The notes below the pieces were generated by a model. It searched no databases, was not told the DNA's origin, and was given only the letters and a program-made list of their open reading frames with translations. 64,000 nt of DNA from the NCBI GenBank assembly GCA_963768835.1, contig CAVYJB010000002.1, positions 208,223 through 272,222 on the forward strand, given 5' to 3'. The number at the start of each line of letters is the position of its first letter. Positions within the stretch are counted from its first letter, which is position 1. Source of the stretch: an uncultured bacterium. GTDB taxonomy: Bacteria; Patescibacteriota; Minisyncoccia; UBA6257; GWB1-50-10. The position numbers were made by a program, and so were the translations under genes. Positions 7,398 through 55,812 of this stretch are shown one piece after another.

Positions 7398-7410
7398 TGG
7401 ATCGGATACC

Positions 7411-7445
7411 AAGTGGCCTGCAGGATATTCTGCAGGCCACTTTTT
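7411..7445 (+). terminator. Rho-independent terminator after the radical SAM gene
   Basis: Perfect 13-bp inverted repeat aagtggcctgcag ... ctgcaggccactt with a 6-nt loop, followed by ttttt. It lies inside the 5' extension of track ORF 7413..8711, so the downstream gene must start later. Confidence 0.7.
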
Positions 7446-7484
7446 GTAATACCATCGACCACTTGGTATAGTTGGAGGAACGAT

Positions 7485-9630: not shown

Positions 9631-9637
9631 CCATTCC

Positions 9638-10573: not shown

Positions 10574-10604
10574 CGGAGATATCCTTTCTCGCTAGCATAA
10601 CCCT

Positions 10605-11651
10605 ATGAAGTACGCGCTCGTGACCGGCGTGACGGGGCAAGACGGCTCCTATATGGCGGAGCTCCTGCTTTCTAAGGGATACACTGTGTACGGGGTCGTA
10701 CGTCGGTCCTCTGTTTTTAACACCGAGCGCATCGATCATCTTATCCACGACCGGCACGAGAAAGGCGTGAAGTTTTTCCGCCTGCATGCCGACCTCTCCG
10801 ATGCGGGGAGCCTCTACAAAATCATTCGCGAGGTCCAGCCTGACGAGGTATACCATCTCGGGGCACAGTCGCATGTGCGGCTAAGCTTCGATATGCCGGA
10901 GTATACCGCCGATGTCACAGGCGTGGGGACTCTTCGGCTCCTCGAAGCGGTCCGAAACTTCGAGGCCACAAATCCCAGCAAGAAGATCAAGTTCTACCAG
11001 GCTTCGAGCTCCGAGATGTTCGGCTCCTCCCCCCCTCCTCAAAACGAGCGGACCCGTTTCGAACCCCAAAGCCCCTACGGCGTCGCCAAGGTTTTCGCGT
11101 ACCAGTCGACGGTGAACTATCGGCGGGGGTTCCAGATGTTCGCGGTGAACGGTATCCTCTTCAACCATGAATCGCCGCGGCGGGGCGGCACCTTTGTTAC
11201 ACGCAAGATTACTCGTGGGGTCGCCGCCATCGCGGCGGGGAAAATCGAGAAGCTTTTCCTCGGGAACCTCGAGGCCAAGCGCGACTGGGGGTATGCACCG
11301 GAGTTTGTGGAGGCGATGTGGCGGATGCTCCAAGAGCCCGAGCCCGACGACTATGTCGTCGCGACGGGGGAGAGCCACACGGTGCGGGAGTTCGCGGAAC
11401 GGGCATTTGGGCACGCCGGTATGGATCTTATCTGGGATGGCGAAGGTTTGAATGAAAAAGGCATAAACCGGAAGACCGGCCGGATTGTGGTGGAGATCGA
11501 CCCCTCCTACTTCCGTCCCACGGAGGTGGACGATCTTCGTGGGGACGCCTCGAAGGCGCGTGAGCGGCTCGGCTGGAAACCCACCGTCACCTTCGATGAG
11601 CTCGTGCGCATCATGGTGGAGAGTGACCGGGAGGGGACCGGCACTCGATAG
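10605..11651 (+). CDS. gmd: GDP-mannose 4,6-dehydratase
   Basis: N-terminus '[35 protein letters not shown]' plus '[17 protein letters not shown]' (YxxxK) and '[10 protein letters not shown]' are near-canonical Gmd sequence. Confidence 0.85.
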
Positions 11652-11690
11652 GCTGTTCGCATTCCCGCAATCAGTATCACGCATCGAACA

Positions 11691-12896
11691 ATGAAGAAGT
11701 ACCGACTTGCGATCGTCACGTCGCACCCTATTCAGTATCAGATCCCGTTCTTCCGGAAGCTCGCCGCGCACCCCGCGATCGACCTCACGGTCTATTTCTC
11801 GTGGGATTTCGGCATCCGGAAGCCGGAGTTCGATGCCGGTTTCGGACAGAAGATTCAGTGGGACGTCCCGCTCCTCGAAGGATACCACTACAAGTTCCTA
11901 AAGAACCTCTCGTGGAAGCCCTCGACTGCGAGCCTTTGGGGCCAGGTGAACCCCGGTATCCTTCCGGAGCTGCTTCGGAACCGCTACGACGCCGTCTGGG
12001 TCCAGGGCTATCGGTTCCTTACCGATTGGTTCGCATTTTTCGCCGCCAAACTTTCTGGAACCCCCATCTTCTTCCGAGGTGAATCTAATCTTTTAAACCA
12101 GAGTAAGGACTGGAAGAAGCTCCTCATAAAGAAAGCCACCGTCGGGAATCTTTTCAAAATTATCTCAGCGTTCCTTTCGATCGGTACACTGAACCGCGAG
12201 TACTATCTTTCCTACAAGGTCCCACCGGAGCGGATCTTCCTTCTTCCGTTCTCGGTGGACGGTGAGTTTTTCGAGCGAGAACGCGGGCGCTGGTCCACTC
12301 GTGTTGCGGAAACGAGGGCGGAGATTGGAGCCACGAAGGACACCGTGGTCATCCTCTATTCCGGCAAGATATACGGGGACAAAGGACCAGGCGCCCTCGA
12401 CCTTCTGAAGGCATTCGAAAAACTAGGTCCCAACCCCGGGGCAGCATTGCTTTTCGTGGGAGACGGGAAAGACAAACCGACGCTTGAGGCTTATGTGCAG
12501 GAGCATAAGCTATCGCACGTCGCCTTCGTCGGTTTTAAGAACCAGACGGAGCTCTCGAGGTACTACAGTATCACCAATATCATGGTGCTTCCGTCCCATA
12601 CCGAGACCTGGGGGCTCGTCGTGAACGAGCTCATGTACTTCGGAGCCGCCATCATCGCATCCGACCGCGTGGGATCGGCGTACGACCTGGTCCGCGACGG
12701 AGTAAACGGCTATCGATTCCCCGTTGGCGATATTAACGCGCTTCGGCACTGTCTGGAGCGGCTGATCAAGAATCCGACGCTTCGAGCTACCATGGGCACT
12801 GCGTCGCGGGAGATCATCGGTACCTGGGGACTCGACGAGATCGTCGAAGGTGCGCTCAAAGCGCTCGAACAGTTCGGGCGACACAGGCAGAGTTGA
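11691..12896 (+). CDS. Glycosyltransferase family 1 (GT4-type, Glycos_transf_1 domain)
   Basis: C-terminal 'VLPSHTETWGLVVNELMYFGAAIIASDRVGS' resembles the EX7E-type retaining GT-B motif. Confidence 0.6.
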   Translation: MKKYRLAIVTSHPIQYQIPFFRKLAAHPAIDLTVYFSWDFGIRKPEFDAGFGQKIQWDVPLLEGYHYKFLKNLSWKPSTASLWGQVNPGILPELLRNRYDAVWVQGYRFLTDWFAFFAAKLSGTPIFFRGESNLLNQSKDWKKLLIKKATVGNLFKIISAFLSIGTLNREYYLSYKVPPERIFLLPFSVDGEFFERERGRWSTRVAETRAEIGATKDTVVILYSGKIYGDKGPGALDLLKAFEKLGPNPGAALLFVGDGKDKPTLEAYVQEHKLSHVAFVGFKNQTELSRYYSITNIMVLPSHTETWGLVVNELMYFGAAIIASDRVGSAYDLVRDGVNGYRFPVGDINALRHCLERLIKNPTLRATMGTASREIIGTWGLDEIVEGALKALEQFGRHRQS

Positions 12897-13839: not shown

Positions 13840-14916
13840 TTGCCGACACCCGCCCTGAACCTCCTCTTCGTCGGCGACCTGAACGAAGAAGGCCGGAGCT
13901 TCCAGCGTTACCGCACGTTTCAGGATCTTGGACTCTGCGTCCGGGGTATTTCGTTTGTCCCAGTGCGTACAGACGGGAAGGATCCTTATCACATCTCGTA
14001 CCTTGCTCGTCTCTGCTCGAAAATTGGGTTCCCGCCGGACCTCACAGGCGCGAACCAAGCCATCCGTGACGCGCTGCAAAGGGGCTCCTTCGACGTCGTG
14101 TGGATTGAGAAAGGGAATGCGGTGCGCCCTTCGACGCTACGCTTCGTCCGCACGCAGCATCCTTGCCCGGTACTCGTCTCTTGTTCGGAGGACGACATGT
14201 ATGCGCGGCATAACCACTCCCTTTATTACCGATGGGGGCTCAAGTATTACGACGTCATTTTTACAACAAAAACATACAACCTTACTGAGCTCCCACGGTG
14301 GGGCGCGCAGCGAGTGGAACTATTCCTCGACGCGTATGATGAGAAGATACATCGCCCGTTGGAGCTTACCCCAGAGGATCGAGCAATGTACGGAGCGGAG
14401 GTCGGTTTCGTAGGGACCTTTGAACGCGATCGGGCTGAGACAATGCTCTATCTTGCGGAGCACAACATTCCCGTCGTGGTATGGGGAGATGGTTGGGGGG
14501 CATGGGCAGGGCGGCATCCGAACCTCACTATCCGCGCCCGCGCTGTCTACGGTGACGAATACGTGAAGGCGATTATAGCCACAAAAGTGAATCTCTGCTT
14601 CCTTCGGAAGGTGAACCGCGATGAAACCACGAGCCGAACAGTGGAGATTCCCGCATGTGGCGGTTTCATGGCCGCGGAACGGACAACCCGCCACCTCGAG
14701 TTCTTCGAAGAGGGGAAAGAGGCTGTATTTTTCGGTTCGCGAGAAGAACTTCTGGACCTCGTGCGGCGGTATCTTCCAGACGGGACGGGACGGGCACGTA
14801 TCGCCGTAGCGGGGCTTACTCGCTGTCTTCGGAGCGGCTATAGCCACCGAGCCCAGCTCACCAAAATGCTTTCGTTGACCCGCGGAGTCCCGGTTGCTAG
14901 GATGGAAAAGCAGTGA
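13840..14916 (+). CDS. CgeB-like protein (DUF3880 + Glyco_trans_1_2-like C-terminus), putative glycosyltransferase
   Basis: C-terminal 'RTVEIPACGGFMAAERT...FFEEGKEAVFF' resembles the CgeB / Glyco_trans_1_2 family. Recognition is weak. Confidence 0.4.
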   Translation: MPTPALNLLFVGDLNEEGRSFQRYRTFQDLGLCVRGISFVPVRTDGKDPYHISYLARLCSKIGFPPDLTGANQAIRDALQRGSFDVVWIEKGNAVRPSTLRFVRTQHPCPVLVSCSEDDMYARHNHSLYYRWGLKYYDVIFTTKTYNLTELPRWGAQRVELFLDAYDEKIHRPLELTPEDRAMYGAEVGFVGTFERDRAETMLYLAEHNIPVVVWGDGWGAWAGRHPNLTIRARAVYGDEYVKAIIATKVNLCFLRKVNRDETTSRTVEIPACGGFMAAERTTRHLEFFEEGKEAVFFGSREELLDLVRRYLPDGTGRARIAVAGLTRCLRSGYSHRAQLTKMLSLTRGVPVARMEKQ

Positions 14917-15032
14917 GCCTTATGCTGTGTTTAACACGCCATCCTGCGAAAAGCTCTCTCTCGGTATTTCCGGAGAAAAACCCTCGGAGAAAGTAAGTAG
15001 CTGTTTAGCAATAAATAGAGAAAAACAATAGC

Positions 15033-15929
15033 ATGTTGCCGAAACTAAGATTACTTTTTCATATTATAAGATCCACAAAAAACTGGATTTATGTAGCGAT
15101 TTCTCGTCTGAGAAATAAAAATTTCACTGCCCATTTCCGGAATGGCAAAACGATGAACGTGAACGCTGGAACGTGGTCGGATTACGCTAGCTACGTCTAC
15201 CTTTTTTCTTTAATAAATGGCGCAAAGATTGAGGGCGACATCCTCGAGTTTGTCTATGGGAAGCCATTGAAATTCACGTTCGGCAAGTGGGGATTTGGAA
15301 CGATCGCGGAGGTGTTTGGGAAGGATGAGTATAAAAAGGTATTCAATGTCAGAGGCAAGGTTGTTGTCGATGTCGGCGCAGCATTTGGAGACACAGCGAT
15401 ATATTTTTTAATGAACGGGGCAAAATACGTCCACGCATTTGAACCCATGCCTGGGTATTTCCGACTCGCTGAATCTAACATCCGACTGAATAAGCTTACG
15501 GAAAAATGTAATGTATCGCTTACTGCAGTGGGGGGGTTGCCAGGGAGTTTGCGTATCAACCCTGATTCTGACAATATGTTCGGCAAAGATCAGCAAGTGC
15601 CATCAAAAGGGAAGGTGAAAGAGGAAGTGGTGCCCGTGGTTACTCTCCAGCACATTGTCGAACAGCGCGGCATTCAGGACGGTTGTCTGAAGATAGACAC
15701 CGAGGGATTTGAGTATGAAATCATTCAGAACACGCCGCCAGAGATTCTACGAAAATTCTCCGACATATTTATTGAGTACCATTATGGATATGAAGGCATA
15801 GAGCCATATTTACGGAACGCTGGATTTAAGGTTTTTCACACAAAACCGATATATCACTATATGCCGGTATACAAGGAAGAAGCCGCCAAAACCATGTTCG
15901 TTGGATATGTGATAGCAAAAAGGCAATGA
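15033..15929 (+). CDS. FkbM-family methyltransferase, in a low-GC islet
   Basis: 'VVVDVGAAFGDTAIYF...YVHAFEP' and 'CLKIDTEGFEYEI'. The gene and its flanks are conspicuously AT-rich compared with neighbouring genes. Confidence 0.6.
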   Translation: MLPKLRLLFHIIRSTKNWIYVAISRLRNKNFTAHFRNGKTMNVNAGTWSDYASYVYLFSLINGAKIEGDILEFVYGKPLKFTFGKWGFGTIAEVFGKDEYKKVFNVRGKVVVDVGAAFGDTAIYFLMNGAKYVHAFEPMPGYFRLAESNIRLNKLTEKCNVSLTAVGGLPGSLRINPDSDNMFGKDQQVPSKGKVKEEVVPVVTLQHIVEQRGIQDGCLKIDTEGFEYEIIQNTPPEILRKFSDIFIEYHYGYEGIEPYLRNAGFKVFHTKPIYHYMPVYKEEAAKTMFVGYVIAKRQ

Positions 15930-16056
15930 GGGAGCGGAAGCGGTACTAAGGAAGGGAGGCATTCTAGAAGTAGCTATAGTAAAAAATTCTTGATTAGAAG
16001 ATATTTTCTTCGCAAAAACCTTCTTTCGTCTGATGGAATTACTATAGATTAAATTA

Positions 16057-17028
16057 ATGTCTGAAACCACTAAAACAAGAGATGATAGCATGCTGTTGAG
16101 TATCTGCATTCCCACTTATGATCGCCCTAAGCAGGTGGAACGACTCCTGAGGGAGCTCCCGCCCCAGCTCGTTCCCGGCGTGGAAGTCATAATCCGTGAC
16201 GATAGTTCCAACAACGAAACAGAGCGACTCATAGAGTCCCATCGGGCCGATCCCCGCATCCGATATTTTAGAGGTGAGCGCATGGGCGTTGATCGCGCTA
16301 TATTGTTTTTAGTAAAAGAGGCAAAGGGTGAATACGTTTGGCTTTTCGGTGATGATGAGATGGTCGATGGTGCAGCGGGCTACATCATATCCGTTCTCAA
16401 GCGATTCCCTAAGATTTCCTTTATGTACCTTAATGCCCGCAGTTCTAATTCAGAACAAGCAGCTTTTGATTTTGGAGAAGACAGATTTTTCCTCGACCGC
16501 AACGAGGTTATTGAGAAAATTGGTCATCTCTTAACCTTTATCTCAGCCCTCGTTTTTAAGAGAAGCGAAGCTCTGACTGGCGTTCGTCAGTCCGAAAAAT
16601 ATGCGGATAGCGCACTACTCGATTTTTATTTAGTGCTCCATATCCTGTCAGGTACTGGCCGATTTTACTTTATTAACAAACCCCTGATTATTACGGATCC
16701 CAAAATGCCCGACGAGCCTCTGTGGTATGACAGTTACCGGGTATTTATCGTCAACGTGTCGAACATACTTCACGAGTTTGATGGTAAGTTTCGTAAGGAA
16801 TCCATTAGACGATTATTGAAGGAGCACTTCGGGAGGATTTTGAAAGCGATTCTAGTGTATCGAGTCAAAAGCTACACCCATGATTGGGGGTCAGAATCCA
16901 TAAAAACAGGCAATCTCCTCAGATTCATGTGGAGCTTTCCAGAATTTTGGATGAGCCTACCGTTCCTCATGATGCCGCGGGCTGTCTTAAGACCGGTTTA
17001 TCGGGCGTACAAATCTTTCAAGCGGTAG
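16057..17028 (+). CDS. Glycosyltransferase family 2
   Basis: 'LSICIPTYDRPKQVERLL...VIIRDDSSNNETERL' and a DD motif 'LFGDDEM'. Paralogue of 20216..21208; they share the C-terminal 'WSFPEFW..LPFLMMPRAVL' motif. Confidence 0.6.
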   Translation: MSETTKTRDDSMLLSICIPTYDRPKQVERLLRELPPQLVPGVEVIIRDDSSNNETERLIESHRADPRIRYFRGERMGVDRAILFLVKEAKGEYVWLFGDDEMVDGAAGYIISVLKRFPKISFMYLNARSSNSEQAAFDFGEDRFFLDRNEVIEKIGHLLTFISALVFKRSEALTGVRQSEKYADSALLDFYLVLHILSGTGRFYFINKPLIITDPKMPDEPLWYDSYRVFIVNVSNILHEFDGKFRKESIRRLLKEHFGRILKAILVYRVKSYTHDWGSESIKTGNLLRFMWSFPEFWMSLPFLMMPRAVLRPVYRAYKSFKR

Positions 17029-17039
17029 TTCCAAGACGA

Positions 17040-17897
17040 TCAGTGTTCGCGTTCCACCAAGAAATTTCCTGAACTGAGAGCGAGTACCTCGTCGGGCGTC
17101 ATGGGTTCAAGTTTCTTTTTCTCTTCATTGACGTATCGGAAAGAAAAGCCCATTCGCGCGAGCGAGAGCACGCACTCGCGGGGGTCATCTCCCGCCGCGC
17201 GGACATCGGGCATTGAAAATTCAATGAGCATCGTCAAATTACTGCTGCGAGCGAGCACCTCGGGCATGCCGCGCAGTACCTTTGCCTCAGCTCCCTGCAC
17301 ATCGATTTTGACGAAGTCAACTTTCGAACCCTTCGGGATACATTCGTCAATCTTTACCGTCTTAACCTGGACCGACCTCCGTTCGCCACTTCCTTCTTTG
17401 TAGATTCGGTGATCTCCGGTATTTTCTTCTGAAAGATAAAGTTGCGTTGTTGCGGTAGTGTCCGCGGCTGCAGCGGGGATTACAACGATACGGTCCGACA
17501 TGTCATTTTTGCGAACGTTTTGGTTGAGGACGGAAAGGTTCTCAGGGTCTGGCTCCAAGGCGAATACCTTACCCCGTGGTCCCACGGCGCGCGCTGCCAG
17601 GATGGTGTAGTAGCCGATGTTTGCCCCCACGTCAACGACGATGGCGCCTTGGTGGAGCCGCTCTAGGAAAACACTCGATTCGAACGGTTCCCATGTACCT
17701 TTCAGGATCAAAGCGTCAGCGATGACGTGGTCCTGCGGGTTGAGCTGTATCTGCATTCCCGAAACCGATGCGCTTCGAGGCTTCAGCAAGCGATACAGAA
17801 AGTCGTGGAGCGCGCGGGCAACCGGAGAGCGCGTGATCCAGCTTCCGCGTGTCAACCCGGTCAATGACCGGTAGAGTCGGAACATCGCGCTTTTCAT
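17040..17897 (-). CDS. FkbM-family methyltransferase
   Basis: 'VVDVGANIGYYTILAARAVGPRGKVFALEPD' and 'DFVKIDVQGAEAKVLRGM'. Close paralogue of 9638..10573. Its start overlaps the stop of the upstream minus-strand gene. Confidence 0.65.
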   Translation of the reverse strand: MKSAMFRLYRSLTGLTRGSWITRSPVARALHDFLYRLLKPRSASVSGMQIQLNPQDHVIADALILKGTWEPFESSVFLERLHQGAIVVDVGANIGYYTILAARAVGPRGKVFALEPDPENLSVLNQNVRKNDMSDRIVVIPAAAADTTATTQLYLSEENTGDHRIYKEGSGERRSVQVKTVKIDECIPKGSKVDFVKIDVQGAEAKVLRGMPEVLARSSNLTMLIEFSMPDVRAAGDDPRECVLSLARMGFSFRYVNEEKKKLEPMTPDEVLALSSGNFLVEREH

Positions 17898-18670
17898 AGT
17901 CCTTGGAGCAGCTTTCCTATCACGCCTATAATGACGGCATTCGCGCTAGGGAATGGGTGCCCATAAATGCAATTTTCCACCTCGGAGAACGGAACCTCCT
18001 TCCATTGATTATCAGCCGTCATCCTTTTTAAAAAATAAACGCGGTCGAACAGCTTCCGCCCTTCACGAAACCACCGATCTACATGAGGATTGAACCCCCA
18101 TGGCATCGTAATAATCGCAGTCCCGTTCGGCGCGAGGCATCGTTCGCGAATCGTTACAAGTGTCCGCAAAATCTTTTCGGGATCCCGTGGGGTTTCGTCC
18201 CATCCCACATGCTCGAGCGTTGAAATGCTTACAACAAGATCGTATGGCTTTTCAGGGTGGAACGTAGCTATGTCCTCATGGATAATCCCAAAGCCGGGCT
18301 CGTATTTATCTAGTACCGTGTGGCGATATGCGTTCGAATAATTAAGTAACACGTTCCCGATTTCAAGTATGCGCTCAGCGTGGGAATCGCGGACCAGAGC
18401 TCCGATAATCGAAACCTCTACCGTCCGTTCGTTTTTCCACGAATGGTTGTACGTATGGCGCGTGTAAGAATACGGCTTTCCCTGGAAAGAGAATTTCTTA
18501 GGGGAGGAGAGACGGAAGAATGTATTAAGGAAAAAATCGCGCAATCCGCGGGCAGGCACCGCAATTACTTTTAAAAAAATGCCTCCTACTCCACTTTCCT
18601 GATATCGCAGGCGAACCCTTTCTATTGTTGAGCGAAGCGAGTTTCCCATAATTTCTCTTAAAACTAACAC
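17894..18670 (-). CDS. Hypothetical protein, possibly a degenerate class I methyltransferase fold
   Basis: 'ILEIGNVLLNY' could be a degenerate motif I, and 'DLVVSISTLEHV' resembles the post-motif II region. Weak call. It is co-oriented and overlapping with the downstream FkbM gene. Confidence 0.4.
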   Translation of the reverse strand: MLVLREIMGNSLRSTIERVRLRYQESGVGGIFLKVIAVPARGLRDFFLNTFFRLSSPKKFSFQGKPYSYTRHTYNHSWKNERTVEVSIIGALVRDSHAERILEIGNVLLNYSNAYRHTVLDKYEPGFGIIHEDIATFHPEKPYDLVVSISTLEHVGWDETPRDPEKILRTLVTIRERCLAPNGTAIITMPWGFNPHVDRWFREGRKLFDRVYFLKRMTADNQWKEVPFSEVENCIYGHPFPSANAVIIGVIGKLLQGL

Positions 18671-18808
18671 GGCTGATTTATCTCATCAAGCTCTTGGGTG
18701 GGGTTAGGGTATGATGGGCGATTGGCTCAACTTGAGGAGGTTCGCGTTCGTCCCTCTCCTCTCATCTCATAGACAAAATTCAGCTCATTTGCTATCTTAG
18801 AAAGTATT

Positions 18809-20122
18809 ATGAAAGCTGAGATTTTGCGGGAGATTAAAACTTGCCGCGCGTGCGGATCAAGCAATCTAAAACCGATTTTATCACTCGGGGATCTTTATGT
18901 TTCAGATTTTATGGATGTCAACGATAGCGCCAGCAACGCCAATAAGGTTCCTCTTGAGTTGGTGCTTTGTAGCGTCGCTGATGGAGGTTGCGGTCTCTTA
19001 CAGTCAAGACACACCGTTTCCCACGAAGCGATGTATCGGAATTATTGGTACCGATCCGGCATCAATAAAAGCATGACCGATGAACTAAATGGTATCGCAG
19101 CGAAAGCGGAATCCATCCTACCGCTTAAGTCGGGCGACTTCGTGATCGATATTGGTTCAAACGATGGGACGCTTCTCCGCGCCTACACAGTGGAAGGTCT
19201 CCGGCGGATTGGGTTCGAGCCTGCGCGGAACATCGTCGAGAAATACGGGCGAGAGGGGATTACCGACGTGATTACCGACTTCTTCGGCTACAAGGTATGG
19301 CGGGAGAAATTCGGTAACGCTCGCGCGAAAATCATCACAGCAATCGCGATGTTCTATGATCTGGACGACCCTAACGCTTTCGTGGCAGATCTGGCCAAGT
19401 GCCTAGATGATAATGGTGTCGCGATAATCCAGATGCTTTACCTGCCGTCCTTTTTGAAACGAAACGCATTCGATGGTATTTGCCACGAGCACCTAGAGTA
19501 TTATTCCTTACTTTCCGTAGAAAACCTTTTAAAGCGGCACGGCCTTGAAATAGTTGATGTTGAGATGCGGGAGCACATAAACGAAGGCAGTTTTCGGGTC
19601 TATGCGCGAAAAGTTGGTGGGGCGGGATCTCTGAACGTGGGGCCCGGGGCCAAGGAGCGACTGGAAAGAATGCGTGCCGAAGAACAAAAACTTGGATTGG
19701 GCAGCGAGGAAGTCTATAAGGATTTTGTCCGTCGCATCCTCGCGATTAAAGACAAGACCGTTTCCTTCATAAAAAAAGAAGTTGCGAGCGGGAAGAAGGT
19801 TTATGCCTATGCCGCATCCACTAAAGGCAACACTACCCTGCAATTCTTTGGTCTCGACTCCGGTCTTATAAAAGCTATTGCCGACAGGAATCCGGACAAA
19901 TGGGGCAAGAAGACTATTGGAACCATGATTCCTGTAATCTCCGAGGAGCAATTTCGCAAAGAAAGACCGGACTATACTCTCGTTCTGGCGTGGCACTTTC
20001 TTCCGGAATTTGTGAAGAGAGAATCAGATTATCTGAATAATGGGGGAAAGTTTATAGTTCCTCTCCCAGAATTTAAAATCATCGATAAAACGGTGTTGGC
20101 ATCGGTCTCGCGGAAACCTTGA
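18809..20122 (+). CDS. SAM-dependent sugar C-methyltransferase, TylC3/TcaB9 family (Methyltransf_13/14-like)
   Basis: The N-terminal zinc-ribbon 'CRACGSSNLKPILSLGDLYVSDF' matches the CxxCG...LxLGxxP...F signature of NDP-hexose C3-methyltransferases. A SAM-binding core 'VIDIGSNDGTLL' follows. Start ATG 18809 is preceded by an AT-rich divergent promoter region. Confidence 0.6.
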   Translation: MKAEILREIKTCRACGSSNLKPILSLGDLYVSDFMDVNDSASNANKVPLELVLCSVADGGCGLLQSRHTVSHEAMYRNYWYRSGINKSMTDELNGIAAKAESILPLKSGDFVIDIGSNDGTLLRAYTVEGLRRIGFEPARNIVEKYGREGITDVITDFFGYKVWREKFGNARAKIITAIAMFYDLDDPNAFVADLAKCLDDNGVAIIQMLYLPSFLKRNAFDGICHEHLEYYSLLSVENLLKRHGLEIVDVEMREHINEGSFRVYARKVGGAGSLNVGPGAKERLERMRAEEQKLGLGSEEVYKDFVRRILAIKDKTVSFIKKEVASGKKVYAYAASTKGNTTLQFFGLDSGLIKAIADRNPDKWGKKTIGTMIPVISEEQFRKERPDYTLVLAWHFLPEFVKRESDYLNNGGKFIVPLPEFKIIDKTVLASVSRKP

Positions 20123-20215
20123 TTGTCACACCGGTCGGGCAGAATCATCGTGTCTGCGGAACAACTGCGACGCATTCTGTCCGCACCCTCCTTACAAGAT
20201 TAACCCAATATCCAC

Positions 20216-21208
20216 GTGAATGATTCTAAGGATAGAAAATTCCTACTTACTGTTGCCATCCCAACCTACAATCGGCCAAGAGAGATCGATCGGCTTCTCC
20301 GTGGTCTTGTCCCGCAAATCACACCAGAAATTGAAGTATATATTCAAGACGATGGCACAAATGACGAGACCCAGGCAGTTGTTTTCAGACATTTTGAAGG
20401 GAAGGAGGGCGGCTTAACCTACGTTCGAGGCAAAAAGCTGGGCGTCGATAATGCCATTCTTCTCACGGTCGAGCATGCACATGGCGGGTATGTTTGGACC
20501 TTCGGCGATGACGACGAGATGGCGGCTGAAGCGCTTGAAAAAGTAACAAGCATTCTCAAGAAGCATCCCAACATCACATTTATTTGGGCTAATTTTCGGG
20601 CGGCTTACATGGATAAGCCCGTTATCGATCTTGGTGGCGACAAGTTTTTCAAAGACCGTAACGAGGTCCTAACCGACGTCAATAACAGGATTGGCCTGCT
20701 ATCCACCCTGATCTTTAAAAAAAGCGAGGCTATGTCTGCCATGCCGTTAGCTCGGAAGAATGTCGGTTCCTGGTGGTCACTTATCATGCTGGTACTGGAG
20801 GTTCTTTCAAAAGACGGGAAGTTCTATTTTCTGCAAGGCCCGTATGTAACCGCCCATCCGACACCCCCGGCCGAGCTTAAGGCGTATGGTTTCCACGACC
20901 TCGGTTTCCAGGGCTTCGCTGTCAATTTCTACAAAATTTTCGGACCCTTCCGCAAGAAATTTGATCGTAGGGCGATCAGAAGAGTTCTAAAGTTGAACTT
21001 TGGCAGTGCTTGGCGCGGTGTTATCATGGGGGAGTTGCGAGGATCAGAAACTACTCGTGGTAAGGTGGGTCAGATGATCAAGCTTTACTGGAGTTATCCG
21101 GAATGCTGGATTGCTGCGCCACTCTTCTTAATGCCGAGACCCGTGCTCGCAATTCTCTACAAGCTTTATAAAAAGGTGATCCGGCACGGATACCGGGAAG
21201 GCAATTAA
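20216..21208 (+). CDS. Glycosyltransferase family 2 (paralogue of 16057..17028)
   Basis: 'LTVAIPTYNRPREIDRLL...YIQDDGTNDETQ', DD motif 'FGDDDEM', and C-terminal 'WSYPECWIAAPLFLMPRPVL'. Starts at GTG 20216. Confidence 0.6.
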   Translation: MNDSKDRKFLLTVAIPTYNRPREIDRLLRGLVPQITPEIEVYIQDDGTNDETQAVVFRHFEGKEGGLTYVRGKKLGVDNAILLTVEHAHGGYVWTFGDDDEMAAEALEKVTSILKKHPNITFIWANFRAAYMDKPVIDLGGDKFFKDRNEVLTDVNNRIGLLSTLIFKKSEAMSAMPLARKNVGSWWSLIMLVLEVLSKDGKFYFLQGPYVTAHPTPPAELKAYGFHDLGFQGFAVNFYKIFGPFRKKFDRRAIRRVLKLNFGSAWRGVIMGELRGSETTRGKVGQMIKLYWSYPECWIAAPLFLMPRPVLAILYKLYKKVIRHGYREGN

Positions 21209-21212
21209 CGTT

Positions 21213-21971
21213 ATGGAGGATCTGCTTGTCCGTTTGGTGGGATACATCGCGACGGTGCTCCACGGTGATGCCGCCGTCTTCGACCGGTGGCTTTGGCTTC
21301 GGAAGCATATCTTGCGAGGGCCCCGGCGCACCCTCGACGCTGGGTGCGGTACTGGGGCGTTCGCGATGTACGCCGCAAAAGCAGGGAACGAAGTGGTTGG
21401 TATCTCCTTCCATCCGCGGGAGAACGAGGTGGCTGCGCGGCGGGCGCGTATCCTCGGTCTCACGAATATCCGATTTGTGACAGGTAACTTGGGGGAGCTG
21501 AGCGCTATGCGAGCGGCGCTCGGGTCCTTCGACCAGGTTATCTGTTTCGAGACCATGGAGCACATCATGGACGACCGAAAGTTGCTGCGCGATCTGGCTT
21601 CCATTCTCCGACCCGGCGGAAGACTGCTTCTTACAGTTCCCCACCTTCACTACCATCGAATGCCAGGGGATAGCATCTCGAAAGTGGAGGACGGCCGACA
21701 TGTCCGGTGGGGGTACACACCCGAACAGCTAAGGAAAATGTTTGAAGAGGTGGGGCTCAAGGTGCAGACCACAGAGTATCTCACTGGGTATGCCGTGCAG
21801 CATGCTATTCAAGCGGAACGCGCGGTCTTAAAGGTCTTAGGCCCCCGACTCGCCTGGCTTATTACCTTTCCACTCCGGCTCGGGAGGATTATAGACCCAC
21901 TTCTTATGCGCCTTACCTCCTATCCCGCGTTCACAGTCGGCGTGGTGGGTGAAAAGCCGATTAACGCCTGA
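21213..21971 (+). CDS. Class I SAM-dependent methyltransferase
   Basis: Motif I 'LDAGCGTGAFAMYAAKAGNEVVGIS' and 'GGRLLLTVP'. Confidence 0.6.
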   Translation: MEDLLVRLVGYIATVLHGDAAVFDRWLWLRKHILRGPRRTLDAGCGTGAFAMYAAKAGNEVVGISFHPRENEVAARRARILGLTNIRFVTGNLGELSAMRAALGSFDQVICFETMEHIMDDRKLLRDLASILRPGGRLLLTVPHLHYHRMPGDSISKVEDGRHVRWGYTPEQLRKMFEEVGLKVQTTEYLTGYAVQHAIQAERAVLKVLGPRLAWLITFPLRLGRIIDPLLMRLTSYPAFTVGVVGEKPINA

Positions 21972-22004
21972 TTATCTGGGCTTCGCCCTCAGGAGAAACT
22001 TTTA

Positions 22005-22718
22005 ATGGTGAACTTTGCGAGGAGATACTATCATCGGATTCGACTCACTCTCTGGTCGGTTTTCCATCTGCCAAAGAAATTATTTGTTGCTGATACAAAT
22101 CTGTTTTTTCCTGCATGGAATTGGCAGGTGGCGCTTCTTTGTAAGGTGCCCTCTACGATCATTCAGAACGGGCGCATGACCTATGAGCCCATCGAGCGCG
22201 AACACTTCCTGGGACTTTTGGAAAAGGGAGATATTTTCTTTGATGTGGGGGCAAACATCGGATATTATTCTCTCCTTGCGGCAGGGCACGGGGCCAAAAA
22301 AGTTTTTGCATTTGAAATACTTGATGAGTACGCCTCTATCGCAGAGAAAGCGTTTAAGCTTAACCATATCGATGGAGAGGTCATAAGATGCGGCGTTGGG
22401 AAAGGAGACACTCCCATTTCTTTCAATGATTCTCTCGCTGGCAAATCCGGGCGTACACCTCTCGCGCTTGATGATTTTTCGAAAAAGAGCGGCATGTATC
22501 CCGACGTAATCAAGATGGATATCGAAGGGTTTGAAGGCGAAGCCTTGCAATATGCAACGGAAATATTAAAGAGAAAGCCTTCAATCGACATCTCCGTCCA
22601 TTCAAAGTTTCTTGAAGAAAAAGGAACAAGTGGTGAGGCGGTACTTAGCCTCTTGGCGGGATTTGGGTATCGCGTTCAGTATGAATACGGAGGAACGCAT
22701 TTTATGAAGGCGAAGTAG
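22005..22718 (+). CDS. FkbM-family methyltransferase
   Basis: 'FFDVGANIGYYSLLAAGHGAKKVFAFE' and 'IKMDIEGFEGEAL'. Confidence 0.6.
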   Translation: MVNFARRYYHRIRLTLWSVFHLPKKLFVADTNLFFPAWNWQVALLCKVPSTIIQNGRMTYEPIEREHFLGLLEKGDIFFDVGANIGYYSLLAAGHGAKKVFAFEILDEYASIAEKAFKLNHIDGEVIRCGVGKGDTPISFNDSLAGKSGRTPLALDDFSKKSGMYPDVIKMDIEGFEGEALQYATEILKRKPSIDISVHSKFLEEKGTSGEAVLSLLAGFGYRVQYEYGGTHFMKAK

Positions 22719-22741: not shown

Positions 22742-23911
22742 ATGAAAACCATTGTTTCGGTCGGCGGGCGATTTCATGCGTTCAATCTTGCTGCGGAACT
22801 GGCGAAACAGGGACACCTCGAACGCCTCATCACTTCCTACCCCGCATTCGAGGTGGCGAAGTATGGTATCCCGCGAGGGTCTATATGTTCTATGCCAGCG
22901 AAAGAGGTGCTGGAGCGCGCTTGGGGTCGGCTGCCACGATTCCTCCGTGTGGCGTGGAACCCACAGTTCTTCTTTGCAGAATTCTTTGATGAAAGAGCGG
23001 CTCGGAGAGTTGTCCCCGCCGACATTTTCGTTGGATGGTCAAGCTTCTCGCTCCACACACTCCGAAAAGCTCGGACCTTAGGTGCTCGGATCATTGTAGA
23101 ACGGGGCAGCTCCCATATTGTTTATCAGCGGGATCTCATGCGGGATGAGTATGAGCGGTGGGGGGTTGCTCCTACGTCGCTCCAGCTACCTCACCCCGCG
23201 GTGGTCGAGAAGGAGCTAAAGGAGTACGAGGAAGCGGACGCGGTTGCAGTTCCCTCGCTCTTTGTGAAGCGAACTTTTCTTGAGAAGAAGATCCCAGAAC
23301 GAAAAATAATCCATATTCCTTACGGAGTCGACCTTTCCTCGTTCCGGAGGATTCCACGGAGCGATACGAAATTTCGTGCCATCTACACTGGAGGAATGAG
23401 TTTCCGGAAAGGAACACCCTATCTTCTCCAGGCATGGAGCGAACTTCGGCTCCCAGACGCTGAACTCGTGCTCATCGGATCGATGAGCGACGAGGTGCGG
23501 CCATTTTTCAGGAAATATGCGGGGACCTTCACTTATCTTGGGCATGTCCACCAATCGGAGCTCTATCGCCACTACTCGAACGCGTCGGTCTTCGTGATGC
23601 CGTCCATAGAAGAAGGTCTTGCGCTTGTGCAACTTCAGGCGATGGCTTGCGGTTTGCCGATCCTTGCAACGACGAACACGGGAGCAGAAGATGTTGTGCG
23701 TGACGGTACGGACGGGTTTATCGTACCTATCCGCGATACGGAGGCGCTCAAGAAGAAGCTGACGTATCTCTACGAGAATAGAGAAATCTGTGCGAAGATG
23801 GGAGAGTCAGCCGCGGCTCGAGTATCACAGAGCTTTACCTGGGATGACTATGGAGCGAAGATTGTGGTTGCTTACCAGCGGTTGCTCGACGGCCTCTCGG
23901 TACGGAACTAG
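22742..23911 (+). CDS. Glycosyltransferase family 1 (GT4)
   Basis: 'VFVMPSIEEGLALVQLQAMACGLPILATTNTGAEDVV' is a classic Glycos_transf_1 motif. Confidence 0.65.
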   Translation: MKTIVSVGGRFHAFNLAAELAKQGHLERLITSYPAFEVAKYGIPRGSICSMPAKEVLERAWGRLPRFLRVAWNPQFFFAEFFDERAARRVVPADIFVGWSSFSLHTLRKARTLGARIIVERGSSHIVYQRDLMRDEYERWGVAPTSLQLPHPAVVEKELKEYEEADAVAVPSLFVKRTFLEKKIPERKIIHIPYGVDLSSFRRIPRSDTKFRAIYTGGMSFRKGTPYLLQAWSELRLPDAELVLIGSMSDEVRPFFRKYAGTFTYLGHVHQSELYRHYSNASVFVMPSIEEGLALVQLQAMACGLPILATTNTGAEDVVRDGTDGFIVPIRDTEALKKKLTYLYENREICAKMGESAAARVSQSFTWDDYGAKIVVAYQRLLDGLSVRN

Positions 23912-23913
23912 AC

Positions 23914-25407
23914 ATGTCTATGATCGAAAAATTTAGAGCTATTCTGCTTAAGAAACGGGGTGCGCGGCAGACCGTTTTCAAGAATTTCCTCTGGCTCCTG
24001 ACCTCAAACGTGGGGACCCGCATACTCCGAGGAGCCGTCACGCTCTATGCGGCCCGGGTCCTCGGAGACGCCGGATACGGGGTTTTCGCGTACGCGTTTG
24101 GACTCGCCGGCCTCTTCGTGTTTGTAAAAGACATTGGGGTGGATGTGGTGTTGACGAGGGAGGTCGCGAAGAACCCTGAGGCGCGGCCGGCGTACCTTGC
24201 GACGTCATTCTGGATTGAGCTCGGGCTTCTCGCTATTACCCTTCCACTCCTTCTCTTCGTCGCGCCCCTTTTCAGCAAGAGCCCGGAAGCTACCACACTC
24301 ATCCCTCTCGTTGCGCTTAGCTTCATTTTGGACGATCTCCGAGACCTCTTCGTCGGGTTCTTCCGCGGCACAGAGCGGATGGAATTCGAGGCGTTTGTGG
24401 TTGTGGGCGGTAATCTCCTTCTTACCATCCTCGGTTTTGCCGCGCTCCTCCTCCGGCCCACCCCCCATACCCTTGTCCTCGCTTACGTGGGGTCCTCCGT
24501 TGCGGGGCTCCTTCTCGCTTGCGCGTTCCTCCGGGGTTCTTTCTGGGATCTTTTTACGCGTTTTCGGAAGGAGCTTATAAAACCTATCTTTGTGGCGGTC
24601 TGGCCGCTGGCCCTCTCGTCTCTTGCGGGCGTCCTCTTTCTCTTTGACGTCGACACGGTGATGCTCGGATGGTGGAAGAGCACTGCGGATATTGGGCTCT
24701 ACGGAGCCGCTCAGCGCTTCGTCGGCGTCGTGAGCGCGCTCTCGGTGCTCGTTGGCACAAGCGCATTCCCCGCTCTCTCGCGGTTCGTGCACCAAGGGGA
24801 TCGTGCGAAGGCGCGGGAGTTAATTGAACGTATCCTCGCGGTTCTCTACCTCATTTCGTTGCCGATTATTGTAGGAGGCGTACTTCTTCGGGGACCTCTC
24901 ATGGGGTTCGTGTTCGGTGCGAGCTACGCGCAGGGCGGTCTCGCCTTCGCAGTCCTTCTCCTCACAATGCTTGGGGGCAACGCTCTGGGGTTCTATTCGG
25001 GCATCATTTTCGCCCATAACCAGCAGAAGCGGACCGTCATATTCACGATTATCGCCGGCTTCCTGAATGTCGGGTTTAACTTCCTTCTCATCCCGGTCTA
25101 CGGTGCGGCGGGCTGCGCCGCTGCCACAGTCATCGCGGACACCGTCTACACAGGTGCCCTCTGGTGGCTCTCGAAGCGGTCCATTTCATTCACCGTGCTC
25201 CCGCACCTCGTGAAGATTGCCATCGCCTCCGCCCTGATGGGGGTTCTTGTCGCCATCCTTGCGGCTTTAGGCGTGCATGTTCTTATCTCCGTCGTGGCCG
25301 GAGCCGCGGTCTACTTCCTTCTCCTCCATCTCCTTAAGGAGCCGGTCCTGAAGGAAGTCCTAGGCCTCGCAGGGTTCCTTCGCAAGTCGGAATCCACACC
25401 AGCATGA
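23914..25407 (+). CDS. Wzx-type oligosaccharide flippase (Polysacc_synt / MATE-like family)
   Basis: Roughly 12-14 predicted TM helices. The N-terminus 'RQTVFKNFLWLLTSNVGTRILRGAVTLYAARVLGDAGYGVF' is typical of the PST family. Paralogue of 38980..40479. Confidence 0.65.
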   Translation: MSMIEKFRAILLKKRGARQTVFKNFLWLLTSNVGTRILRGAVTLYAARVLGDAGYGVFAYAFGLAGLFVFVKDIGVDVVLTREVAKNPEARPAYLATSFWIELGLLAITLPLLLFVAPLFSKSPEATTLIPLVALSFILDDLRDLFVGFFRGTERMEFEAFVVVGGNLLLTILGFAALLLRPTPHTLVLAYVGSSVAGLLLACAFLRGSFWDLFTRFRKELIKPIFVAVWPLALSSLAGVLFLFDVDTVMLGWWKSTADIGLYGAAQRFVGVVSALSVLVGTSAFPALSRFVHQGDRAKARELIERILAVLYLISLPIIVGGVLLRGPLMGFVFGASYAQGGLAFAVLLLTMLGGNALGFYSGIIFAHNQQKRTVIFTIIAGFLNVGFNFLLIPVYGAAGCAAATVIADTVYTGALWWLSKRSISFTVLPHLVKIAIASALMGVLVAILAALGVHVLISVVAGAAVYFLLLHLLKEPVLKEVLGLAGFLRKSESTPA

Positions 25408-55730: not shown

Positions 55731-55739
55731 TTAACGTTG

Positions 55740-55812
55740 TCCCCCCACTAGGAATCGAACCTAGAACCTTCTCCTTAAAAGGGAGCTGCTCTACCAATTG
55801 AGCTATGGGGGG
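55740..55812 (-). tRNA. tRNA-Lys (anticodon UUU)
   Basis: The reverse complement folds as a canonical 73-nt cloverleaf. D-arm TAGCTCAATTGGTAGAGC. Anticodon loop CTTTTAA with a GCTCC/GGAGA stem. Variable loop AGGTT. T-arm CTAGG-TTCGATT-CCTAG. Acceptor CCCCCCA/TGGGGGG with discriminator A. CCA is not encoded. It resembles E. coli tRNA-Lys except for the C1:G72 acceptor. Confidence 0.7.

Follow-up and report, generated by a model that had tools for sequence, protein, structure and literature searches.

Organization of the locus

Analysis of the window, i.e., the entire 64-kb stretch of DNA considered here, revealed a Wzx/Wzy-type surface-glycan locus at positions 3459-41795 (Table 1). Those FtsZ matches that bear names all originated from Patescibacteria (up to 75% identity; 77% for the best match overall) and, as judged by sequence, the organism is a member of the Patescibacteria (CPR) with a GC content of about 57%. 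No close relative was found in the databases searched: the FtsZ 90% cluster is a singleton, and no GT4b relative exceeds 62-63% identity.

With GT4b serving as the anchor for locus comparisons, loci were retrieved from genomes (23; identity up to 63%) and metagenomes (80; identity up to 62%), mostly of Patescibacteria. These comparisons place the locus in a cluster family that is common in CPR, in which a conserved backbone (GT1a-GT1_2 ... MT11-GT4b-GT4c-MT-GT2d) surrounds a hypervariable centre. The backbone genes are 44-64% identical to those of related loci (L007, L008, L012, L013, L030, L069, and L115). Homologues of GT1_2 (53-60% identity) occupy the same position in L004, L037, L042, L108, L111, L113, and L115, and the variable region starts downstream of this gene. 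At the other end, the genes directly upstream of GT4b are unrelated in 47 of 75 loci, while 19 of the 75 have a homologue of MT11_21213 (32-54% identity) in that position; by such comparison, MT11_21213 is assigned to the conserved backbone.

As the sequence-only reading had observed, the genes at 17040-18670 are the sole minus-strand genes within the run 3459-28823. Neither an integrase, a transposase, a tRNA nor a flanking repeat was found at the locus. In the spacer at 14917-15032, repeats were not above chance level and no Rfam match was obtained, while the divergent intergenic region contains one weak promoter-like match (18770-18798), with regional promoter-like counts being at chance level.

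Table 1. Features of the interval 14917-22718 and its surroundings, with positions given in window coordinates.
Feature	Position	Strand	Description	GC
FkbM_9638	9638-10573		FkbM gene	0.545
Gmd	10605-11651	+	GDP-mannose 4,6-dehydratase; TIGR01472 equivalog, 521.9 bits (cutoff 415)	
GT1_2	13840-14916	+	Glyco_trans_1_2 glycosyltransferase; PF13524, E 7e-25; left conserved flank	0.574
AT-rich spacer	14917-15032		Left GC step	0.42
FkbM_15033	15033-15929	+	FkbM-family SAM methyltransferase; PF05050, 59.1 bits (cutoff 22.7); TIGR01444, 91.4 bits (cutoff 37.7); z = -6.3, lowest-GC gene	0.436
Spacer	15930-16056			0.354
GT2-A	16057-17028	+	GT2; PF00535	0.460
FkbM_17040	17040-17897	-	FkbM-family methyltransferase; PF05050, 82.5 bits; TIGR01444, 115 bits	0.548
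MT_17894	17894-18670	-	Probable class I SAM methyltransferase, divergent	0.480
Divergent intergenic region	18671-18808		138 nt, between MT_17894 (-) and C-MT (+)	0.457
C-MT	18809-20122	+	Nucleotide-sugar 3-C-methyltransferase, TcaB9/MtmC/KijD1 type; PF08421, PF13489, PF08484	0.483
GT2-B	20216-21208	+	GT2; PF00535	0.485
MT11_21213	21213-21971	+	Class I methyltransferase; Methyltransf_11/23/25	0.584
FkbM_22005	22005-22718	+	FkbM-family methyltransferase; PF05050, 45.2 bits; TIGR01444, 63.2 bits	0.458
GT4b	22742-23911	+	Glycosyltransferase; PF00534 and PF13692; right conserved flank	0.542

Compositional anomaly of six genes

Per-gene GC was calculated across the 64-kb window, the background being the 39 other genes of this one window and not the whole genome. 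Six genes inside 14917-22718 (FkbM_15033, GT2-A, MT_17894, C-MT, GT2-B, and FkbM_22005), all located in the hypervariable centre, presented GC contents of 43.6-48.5%, corresponding to a deficit of 8-13 GC points relative to a background mean of 0.570 (sd 0.021; minimum 0.528; z = -4.0 to -6.3; Mann-Whitney p = 1.2e-7). Per-gene GC in the window is bimodal, with an empty gap between 0.485 and 0.528. The deficit is not restricted to GC3, as GC1 and GC2 are lowered too. The RSCU distance of the six genes is 0.370, as opposed to 0.141 +/- 0.025 (maximum 0.239) for random six-gene sets, and their dinucleotide delta* is 75 versus 36 +/- 12.5 (p about 0.006). In the six proteins, 31% of residues are of the FYMINK type, as compared to 24% in the background. 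The dip in GC is real and far beyond chance, and the deviation noted by eye in the sequence-only reading is borne out by GC, codon usage, dinucleotides and amino acids alike.

That reading had described a fall from 60-65% GC in the flanks to 35-50% across 14917-21208 and again at 22005-22718. FkbM_15033 is indeed the most extreme gene. The flanks, however, measure 53-60%, values of 35-40% are reached only in spacers such as 15930-16056 (minimum for any 300-nt window, 0.377), and the dip is not continuous, being broken by FkbM_17040 and, before FkbM_22005, by MT11_21213, both of which present host-like GC. Given this host-like composition, FkbM_17040 falls outside the foreign set. In total, composition switches five separate times across the interval, in sharp steps located at gene borders. 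The left step falls from 0.597 to 0.407 over about 300 nt, and one of the switches lies where two genes share 4 nt, namely at the start of FkbM_17040 and the stop of MT_17894.

Predicted functions of the encoded enzymes

Four of the six low-GC genes are methyltransferases. All four FkbM genes of the window score above the PF05050 and TIGR01444 thresholds. FkbM_15033 is predicted to be a SAM-dependent sugar O-methyltransferase; its best homologues, 55-56% identical, are from Patescibacteria, with a copy in Nitrospira moscoviensis (L113) being 48% identical. FkbM_22005, the best homologues of which are found in L113 (45%) and L108 (43%), lies between MT11_21213 and GT4b, genes that abut in L007, L008, L012, L013, L069, and L115. 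Among the FkbM genes, FkbM_17040 alone has a match to PF05575, the RfbT family, and this match is sub-threshold (20.9 bits; cutoff 27.9).

The only family match of MT_17894, to Methyltransf_23, is likewise sub-threshold (22.6 bits; cutoff 27), as it is weak in four aligned homologues (E <= 0.1). Searches for a PDB relative found none and the AF2 model, with a pLDDT of 38.8, was unusable. Still, conserved motifs (ILEIGN and DLVVSISTLEH) are present, homologues at 42-45% identity occur in L042, L108, L111, L113, and L173, and the protein is probably a divergent class I SAM methyltransferase.

C-MT aligns over its full length with PDB 4rv9 (E 2.6e-58; about 1e-39 for TcaB9), including the CxxC...C..C and HEH motifs, although the window protein has Cys in place of the Tyr that precedes HEH in 4rv9. 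By homology, C-MT is assigned as a nucleotide-sugar 3-C-methyltransferase of the TcaB9/MtmC/KijD1 type, and shares the three domains (PF08421 zinc, SAM, and PF08484) of these enzymes (PDB 3ndi, 4rv9, and 5t64). Those members of the type with solved structures use dTDP-sugars as substrates in antibiotic pathways. By contrast, C-MT of the window and of related loci accompanies GDP-mannose 4,6-dehydratase: in six cellular loci (L011, L042, L061, L093, L111, and L113), C-MT homologues (60-68% identity) have Gmd or a Gmd-like SDR as their direct neighbour, and Gmd is found within 10 kb in 32 of 80 IMG/VR loci. Because of this association, GDP-4-keto-6-deoxymannose is the presumed substrate of C-MT, and Gmd of the window is likely the supplier of that 4-keto-6-deoxy sugar.

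Relationships of the paralogues

The sequence-only reading considered GT2-A and GT2-B, as well as FkbM_17040 and FkbM_9638, to be paralogous pairs that arose by duplication within the locus. The pairs exist, with the members of each being mutual best matches within the window, yet they are not close, sharing 37.7% and 41.2% identity, respectively. GT2-A belongs to a family of about 60 full-length members (best non-self match, 47% identical), while the nearest relatives of GT2-B are L069_2643, L115_9998, and P0036 (52-53% identical). In the GT2 tree, a B clade receives 95/100 support and GT2-A lies apart from GT2-B, in an A-type grade. The two were sisters in 0/100 bootstraps, whereas the split separating the B proteins of the window and L069 from the A proteins of both was recovered in 100/100 replicates. 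Every locus type contains one GT2-A type and one GT2-B type protein, and an orthologue of each is present in L069 and L115. Since A-B-MT11-GT4b is contiguous in L069, L115, and L116, the GT2 pair is old and conserved in this cluster family, likely stemming from an ancient duplication in its ancestor. Nor are the FkbM proteins reciprocal nearest relatives: among 150 representatives, FkbM_9638 ranks 12th for FkbM_17040 and FkbM_17040 ranks 76th for FkbM_9638. Low identity, the lack of sister bootstraps and these non-reciprocal ranks refute recent duplication within the locus, which is accordingly given almost no weight.

The same gene set in other loci

Homologues of all six low-GC genes, each of which is full length relative to its homologues, are encoded by two loci of Patescibacteria, L108 (GC 0.354) and L111 (GC 0.387), and by N. 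moscoviensis. In the latter (CP011801.1, about 3.29-3.31 Mb), the six homologues are contiguous and present a GC content of 0.45-0.49, as compared to 0.57-0.59 nearby in the same locus. Overall, the N. moscoviensis cassette, which is unannotated, and the Hainich groundwater Patescibacteria contigs (L108-L112) contain the same families as does the window, at 37-68% identity, with C-MT adjoining a Gmd-like gene. In L108, L111, and L113, a contiguous triad is led by a FkbM_15033-like gene, followed by MT_17894-like and GT2-A-like genes. These Nitrospira and Hainich loci lack GT4b and MT11_21213, and their genes are co-directional and contiguous, whereas in the window host-like genes intervene among the six, one of which has the opposite orientation.

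Affinities differ among the six. GT2-B is nearest to backbone-type loci, while the four methyltransferases are nearest to the L108/L111/L113 type. Relative to L108, mean identity is about 51% for the backbone and about 48% for the module; as the module is no closer than the backbone to any candidate donor, no donor can be named and any transfer would be old. In other loci, homologues of GT2-A, GT2-B, and C-MT are 1-7 GC points lower than the backbone genes of the same locus (mean deficits of 3.0, 4.1, and 1.3 points, respectively; maximum 7.2), such that part of the deficit may typify these families or accessory glycan genes. By contrast, homologues of FkbM_15033, serving as control, show no GC deficit against the loci in which they reside (L093, +3.5 points; L108, about 0).

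Origin of the six genes

Taken together, these observations make it probable that the six genes are later arrivals, or replaced alleles, from lower-GC lineages containing the same kind of locus. Entry would likely have been by recombination, the mosaic pattern suggests more than one event, and amelioration to the host composition would still be incomplete. The horizontally acquired look described in the sequence-only reading is thus upheld by the deviating composition and by the recurrence of the six families in L108, L111, and the N. moscoviensis block, as is the content of a decoration module, the tailoring functions being methyltransferases plus GT2s. Late arrival is accordingly favoured, while internal duplication and a single graft are not supported.

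The principal alternative, considered unlikely, is vertical inheritance, with low GC reflecting weak expression, relaxed codon selection, AT-biased mutation, or families rich in AT-coded residues. The GC-poor homologues elsewhere agree with this explanation, as do the larger deficits seen at higher host GC (L037 and L069) and the failure to find a donor nearer than backbone relatives; the lack of a mobility signature at the locus also fits, and speaks against transfer. Yet, the deficits in the window exceed those of every comparison locus, per-gene GC falls into two groups with nothing in between, same-family neighbours (FkbM_17040, FkbM_9638, and MT11_21213) are host-like, homologues of FkbM_15033 are not GC-poor, and the same set forms a discrete low-GC block in the unrelated, high-GC N. 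moscoviensis locus.

That a single event introduced all of 14917-22718 as one island, in the sense of the grafted module of the sequence-only reading, is more doubtful still. Although the interval is compact and includes both minus-strand genes of the run, and although its six low-GC genes have contiguous homologues in N. moscoviensis, low-GC and host-like genes alternate across five GC steps, MT11_21213 is a backbone gene abutting GT4b in related loci, and the two affinities shown by the low-GC genes speak against a single event. An assembly or binning chimera of reads from organisms differing in GC might be imagined, given that the source is a metagenome-assembled contig (551,795 bp), but is highly improbable. 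A Logan contig (run ERR11594402), possibly derived from the same reads, is 100% identical over 17,305 nt and spans every GC step, the switches coincide exactly with gene borders, even where genes overlap, and gene order is sensible against related loci.

Comparison with known systems and implications for the cell surface

Later arrival of the six genes would be in keeping with what is seen at O-antigen and capsule centres, such as those of Burkholderia cenocepacia IST439 (PMC5462993) and Proteus O-antigen clusters (PMC5560731), where, as in the window, a glycosyltransferase and tailoring block about 10 GC points lower lies between conserved flanking genes and has been interpreted as a lateral acquisition. 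In IST439, seven genes of a hybrid O-antigen cluster present 56% GC against a background of 66-67%, and the low-GC genes are broken up by high-GC genes in another species (PMC5462993). The window differs in that the CPR host has no close sequenced relative and no donor species can be named, and in that the cargo is dominated by methyltransferases and the product may be an O-antigen, a wall polysaccharide or a protein glycan.

The FkbM genes offer a second parallel. In Vibrio cholerae, RfbT/WbeT, a FkbM-family sugar O-methyltransferase, switches between the Inaba and Ogawa serotypes. Like RfbT/WbeT, the window genes encode FkbM-type SAM methyltransferases in a polysaccharide locus and, by analogy, could plausibly change a surface epitope by methylation, although the match to the RfbT family is confined to FkbM_17040.

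In the proposed scheme, Gmd would yield GDP-4-keto-6-deoxy-D-mannose, which C-MT, being TcaB9/MtmC-like, would C-methylate to a branched 6-deoxyhexose; GT2-A and GT2-B would add sugars, and methylation of sugars would fall to the FkbM enzymes and MT_17894. The feature is of an ordinary kind, namely a set of tailoring genes of a glycan locus that undergoes lateral exchange, with the host being what is unusual. As such, a well-known pattern, the swapping-in of decoration genes at glycan loci, is encountered in a CPR bacterium, where the gene set would alter the assortment of decorated sugars on the cell surface.

Gene content of the glycan locus

Assignment of gene families by Pfam and NCBIfam revealed a glycan locus of ~38 kb (window positions 3459-41795) that encodes nine glycosyltransferases, at least 10 SAM methyltransferases, two Wzx proteins on opposite strands, a Wzy_C protein, a GT9 protein, GDP-mannose 4,6-dehydratase (Gmd) and a Bac_transf protein. 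An initiating transferase, Wzx and Wzy-type proteins, enzymes of nucleotide-sugar synthesis and several glycosyltransferases are thus all present, as in a Wzx/Wzy-dependent surface polysaccharide cluster. Residing in a CPR genome, the locus is methylation-heavy to an unusual degree.

Genes of the glycan locus considered here (window positions; GC as fraction; scores in bits)
Feature	Position	Strand	GC	Assignment
Wzy-type polymerase/ligase	3459-4853			PF04932 Wzy_C, domain-level basis
B12-binding radical-SAM protein	5622-7397
FkbM 9638	9638-10573			PF05050 81.2
Gmd	10605-11651			TIGR01472 equivalog match
GT1_2	13840-14916			Glyco_trans_1_2 glycosyltransferase
FkbM_15033	15033-15929	+	0.436	PF05050 59.1; TIGR01444 91.4
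GT2-A	16057-17028	+	0.460	GT2 glycosyltransferase
FkbM_17040	17040-17897	-	0.548 (host-like)	PF05050 82.5; TIGR01444 115
MT_17894	17894-18670	-	0.480	Methyltransf_23, sub-threshold (22.6; cutoff 27)
C-MT	18809-20122	+	0.483	PF08421 39.7; PF13489 59.8; PF08484 149.6
GT2-B	20216-21208	+	0.485	GT2 glycosyltransferase
MT11_21213	21213-21971	+	0.584 (host-like)	class I methyltransferase
FkbM_22005	22005-22718	+	0.458	PF05050 45.2; TIGR01444 63.2
GT4b	22742-23911			GT4 glycosyltransferase
Wzx flippase 1	23914-25407			PF01943/PF13440, domain-level basis
UDP-glucose dehydrogenase	30115-31359
Wzx flippase 2	38980-40479	-		PF01943/PF13440, domain-level basis
Initiating polyprenyl-phosphate sugar transferase	40485-41795	-		PF02397 Bac_transf 206.9

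The FkbM genes scored lie above the curated family cutoffs (PF05050, 22.7 bits; TIGR01444, 37.7 bits). For MT_17894, the only family matched, Methyltransf_23, is also matched weakly by four aligned homologues (E <= 0.1); no relative was found in the PDB, including by a profile search with alignment A2, and a single-sequence AlphaFold2 model was unusable (pLDDT 38.8).

Composition of the low-GC genes

In a 1-kb sliding profile, the window shows ~55-60% GC overall, with dips to 43-50% over ~14.5-21 kb, 22-23 kb and 34-36 kb. The first two of these dips correspond to the interval 14917-22718, for which a sequence-only reading had proposed a horizontally acquired, internally duplicated decoration module of low GC. 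The dip is real, with sliding GC, per-gene GC, codon usage and dinucleotide composition all deviating. The GC figures originally offered need some correction: the flanks are at 53-60% rather than 60-65%, and values below 40% are confined to spacers. Likewise, FkbM_17040 had been counted in the low-GC segment, its host-like composition having been overlooked. The statement that the interval holds the only minus-strand genes of a co-directional run is true for the run spanning 3459-28823.

Six genes (FkbM_15033, GT2-A, MT_17894, C-MT, GT2-B and FkbM_22005) account for the deviation. Relative to the 39 other genes of this one 64-kb window, which served as background (GC mean 0.570, sd 0.021, minimum 0.528), they yield z values of -4.0 to -6.3 (Mann-Whitney p = 1.2e-7), with the GC range 0.485-0.528 left empty. 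The RSCU distance of the six was 0.370, as compared to 0.141 +/- 0.025 (maximum 0.239) for random six-gene sets, and their symmetrised dinucleotide delta* was 75, as compared to 36 +/- 12.5 (p ~0.006). In the encoded proteins, the AT-coded FYMINK residues make up 31%, as opposed to 24% in the background. The six genes thus stand apart in codon usage and oligonucleotide signature as well as in base composition, as do genomic islands. The five GC steps are sharp and coincide with gene borders.

At the junctions between genes, GT2-A and FkbM_17040 converge on an 11-nt spacer (17028-17040) in which no terminator-like site was seen, and FkbM_17040 and MT_17894 share a 4-nt overlap (17894-17897). 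Given this overlap, these two genes, despite differing in composition, appear to be translationally coupled.

Elsewhere in the window, a second low-GC islet (34504-36005) is flanked by glycan genes of normal GC. Its two genes are one for a CYTH-domain protein (34504-35055; GC 0.453, z = -5.5) and one for queuosine salvage (Q_salvage/DUF2419; 35052-36005; GC 0.473, z = -4.6). At the window edge, an ORF of 1110 aa (4-3336) presents an odd codon-position composition (GC1 0.50, GC2 0.52, GC3 0.79).

Mobility signatures of genomic islands, namely, an integrase or transposase, an adjacent tRNA and direct repeats, were not detected. All genes between 13840 and 23911 encode glycosyltransferases, methyltransferases or SDR proteins, with no integrase or transposase among them; a tRNA scan placed the sole tRNA of the window at 55739-55812, not adjacent to the interval; and flanking repeats were short and at chance level. 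A promoter and terminator scan, together with an Rfam search around the GC steps, returned nothing above chance.

Related loci and their variable centre

CPR/Patescibacteria are ultra-small episymbionts, mostly uncultured, and to our knowledge little is known of their surface chemistry. For the FtsZ protein of the present host (51953-53158), identity is 77% with the top match, which is unnamed, and 75% with the top named match; all matches that carry a name come from Patescibacteria (Patescibacteria group, Jorgensenbacteria, Minisyncoccia, Paceibacterota and Brennerbacteria), and the protein is a singleton in its 90%-identity cluster. Exact look-ups of three locus proteins found no strain variants, the sole other occurrence being one Logan contig of 18.9 kb, belonging to the same population, that is 100% identical over 17.3 kb.

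Comparison loci (L plus a number) were gathered in part using GT4b as anchor. This anchor yielded 23 genome loci (identity up to 63%) and 80 metagenome loci (up to 62%); no GT4b relative above 63% identity was found in the genome and metagenome scans, the nearest being at 62-63%. The named genome loci are mostly from Patescibacteria, with the remainder from Scalinduaceae, Omnitrophica, Margulisiibacteriota and Pelagibacteraceae. Mapping by tblastn revealed a conserved backbone, with GT1a-GT1_2 upstream and MT11_21213-GT4b-GT4c-(methyltransferase)-GT2d downstream; MT11_21213 belongs to this backbone and is of host-like GC. The gene immediately 5' of GT4b differs among the 75 loci considered (an MT11 homologue in 19, an FkbM_22005-like gene in five and a gene unrelated to the window in 47). 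Within this family of clusters, the hypervariable centre is thus the GT1_2-GT4b interval, where the low-GC genes sit. FkbM_22005 is itself wedged between MT11_21213 and GT4b, homologues of which abut in L007, L008, L012, L013, L069 and L115.

GT4b, and in part the whole backbone, is also found outside Patescibacteria, in L025 (Scalinduaceae), L010 (Omnitrophica), L024 (Margulisiibacteriota) and L017-L023 (Pelagibacteraceae), at identities of 57-58%, no lower than those among CPR lineages, or ~40% in Pelagibacteraceae. This occurrence suggests mobility of the cluster family itself between phyla. The distribution of the backbone across phyla is patchy and offers no vertical reference tree. Literature searches turned up no account of such clusters from CPR.

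Co-occurrence of the six gene families

The best homologues of FkbM_15033 are from Patescibacteria (55-56% identical), followed by a Nitrospira-type group (45-48%). The gene contexts of these homologues were then compared. In two patescibacterial loci from Hainich groundwater, L108 (GC 0.354) and L111 (GC 0.387), counterparts of the full low-GC set lie between GT1_2 and GT4c: homologues of FkbM_15033 (55%), MT_17894 (44-45%) and GT2-A (37-43%) as an uninterrupted triad, together with those of GT2-B (41-42%), C-MT (61-68%) and FkbM_22005 (35-43%). In L108, the C-MT homologue (6789-8209) looks disrupted, with the called gene being of 121 aa and tblastn covering 298 of 437 residues.

All six families also recur, contiguously and co-directionally over ~12.5 kb, in Nitrospira moscoviensis (L113; CP011801.1, 3288970-3309914). 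Here, the order is GT1_2 (53%), FkbM_22005-like (45%), C-MT (65%), Gmd-like (47%), FkbM_15033-like (44%), GT2-B-like (42%), a further FkbM_15033-like (48%), MT_17894-like (42%) and GT2-A-like (37%). The block is at GC 0.45-0.49, as compared to 0.57-0.59 in genes a few kb away, a contrast that is within-locus. Another locus, L042, holds homologues of four of the six. Identity to every comparison locus is similar for the low-GC genes and for the backbone, so that none can be named as donor.

The paralogue pairs

The proposed internal duplication was considered for both pairs of paralogues, GT2-A and GT2-B (37.7% identical) and FkbM_17040 and FkbM 9638 (41.2%). In neither are the copies mutual closest relatives, as recent duplication within the locus would have them. 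GT2-A and GT2-B, members of a small family, were sisters in 0 of 100 bootstraps of neighbor-joining (NJ) trees. Instead, a GT2-B clade (the window copy, L069_2643, P0036, P0016 and P0018) received 95% support (NJ, 100 bootstraps), and the B copies of the window and L069 were split from the A copies of both in 100/100 NJ replicates. Orthologues of each are present in L069 and L115; in these loci and in L116, GT2-A, GT2-B, MT11 and GT4b are contiguous, whereas the window pair is separated by 17040-20122. L108, L111 and L113 each contain one A-type and one B-type GT2. With the A and B copies never sisters and related loci each holding both types, the GT2 pair is, by phylogeny and synteny, an ancient, conserved trait of the cluster family rather than a product of duplication in the window locus. 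As for the FkbM pair, 1.8 billion representatives were searched, and in a BLASTP ranking among 150 representatives FkbM 9638 (P0272) came 12th for FkbM_17040 and FkbM_17040 came 76th for FkbM 9638, lending duplication within the locus no support. Hence, while the original GC observation was sound, inferring duplication from similarity within the window was not.

In L004, a contig of 33% GC, two adjacent GT2 genes (8822-10785; mutual distance 0.65) are nearer each other than either window copy, and look like a separate, younger tandem duplication within the same family.

C-MT and predicted sugar chemistry

C-MT combines an N-terminal zinc domain, a SAM domain and a C-terminal PF08484 domain and aligns over its full length with the solved sugar 3-C-methyltransferase 4rv9 (E 2.6e-58, residues 7-425), with all four cysteines of the zinc site as well as the HEH motif in register, and with KijD1 and TcaB9 (E ~1e-39 to 1e-41). 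This is the architecture of TcaB9/MtmC-type enzymes. C-MT homologues of 60-68% identity adjoin Gmd or a Gmd-like SDR gene in L011, L042, L061, L093, L111 and L113, and Gmd lies within 10 kb of a C-MT homologue in 32 of the 80 IMG/VR contigs so considered (L117-L196, from a total of 91). Given this genomic context, the Gmd product, GDP-4-keto-6-deoxy-D-mannose, is the likely substrate of C-MT. SAM-dependent methylation at C-3 would then yield a 3-C-methyl-branched 6-deoxyhexose, following which the GT2 pair, the FkbM enzymes and MT_17894 would transfer and methylate sugars.

Origin and significance of the low-GC set

The low-GC genes are best read as tailoring genes of foreign composition that occupy the exchangeable centre of a locus for surface glycans, such that the acquisition of decoration genes originally proposed is supported. 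That they arrived as a single graft is not: the five GC steps, the 4-nt overlap of a low-GC and a host-like gene, and the differing affinities of GT2-B, nearest to backbone-type loci, and the four methyltransferases, nearest to loci of the L108/L111/L113 type, favour more than one event, or rearrangement at a later stage. The hybrid O-antigen cluster of B. cenocepacia IST439 offers a published parallel: seven of its genes, of 56% GC, stand against a background of 66-67% and are interrupted by high-GC genes in another species (PMC5462993). Low GC is likewise general in Proteus O-antigen clusters (PMC5560731). An alternative is that the low GC of the window set is a general property of such genes, with no transfer involved. 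This is considered unlikely, yet since in other loci the homologues of GT2-A, GT2-B and C-MT also fall short of their own backbone genes by 1-7 GC points, some of the deficit may be of this general kind.

Transfer by phage was likewise weighed. Homologues of C-MT occur in 91 viral-classified IMG/VR contigs, and in one of these, L173, the only such contig with two of the six genes, an MT_17894-like gene (42%) comes right after C-MT, the two overlapping by 4 nt (10001-11868). The viral C-MT homologues are, however, 32-48% identical, below the identity of cellular relatives, viral matches to FkbM_15033 are distant (<=33%), and the 14 kb of L173 examined contain no phage hallmark. Phage carriage was, therefore, not adopted.

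A compositionally foreign tailoring set of this sort is a known kind of feature, of mild interest for its CPR host and for its recurrence as a low-GC block in Nitrospira. It indicates that the centre of a CPR locus obeys the rules of O-antigen and capsule loci in well-studied bacteria, namely, a backbone that is conserved and a tailoring set that is exchangeable and foreign in composition, in a bacterium that gives ~38 kb to a methyltransferase-rich glycan locus. A more speculative proposal, regarded as rather unlikely, is that the six families form an undescribed cassette, arising in lineages of low GC and moving between Patescibacteria and Nitrospira, whose product would be a 6-deoxyhexose epitope with a C-methyl branch and multiple O-methyl groups. 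As N. moscoviensis is cultured, the chemistry of such a cassette is open to experiment there. If the proposal is true, the cassette could, in CPR, be a swappable surface determinant, bearing on host attachment or phage evasion.
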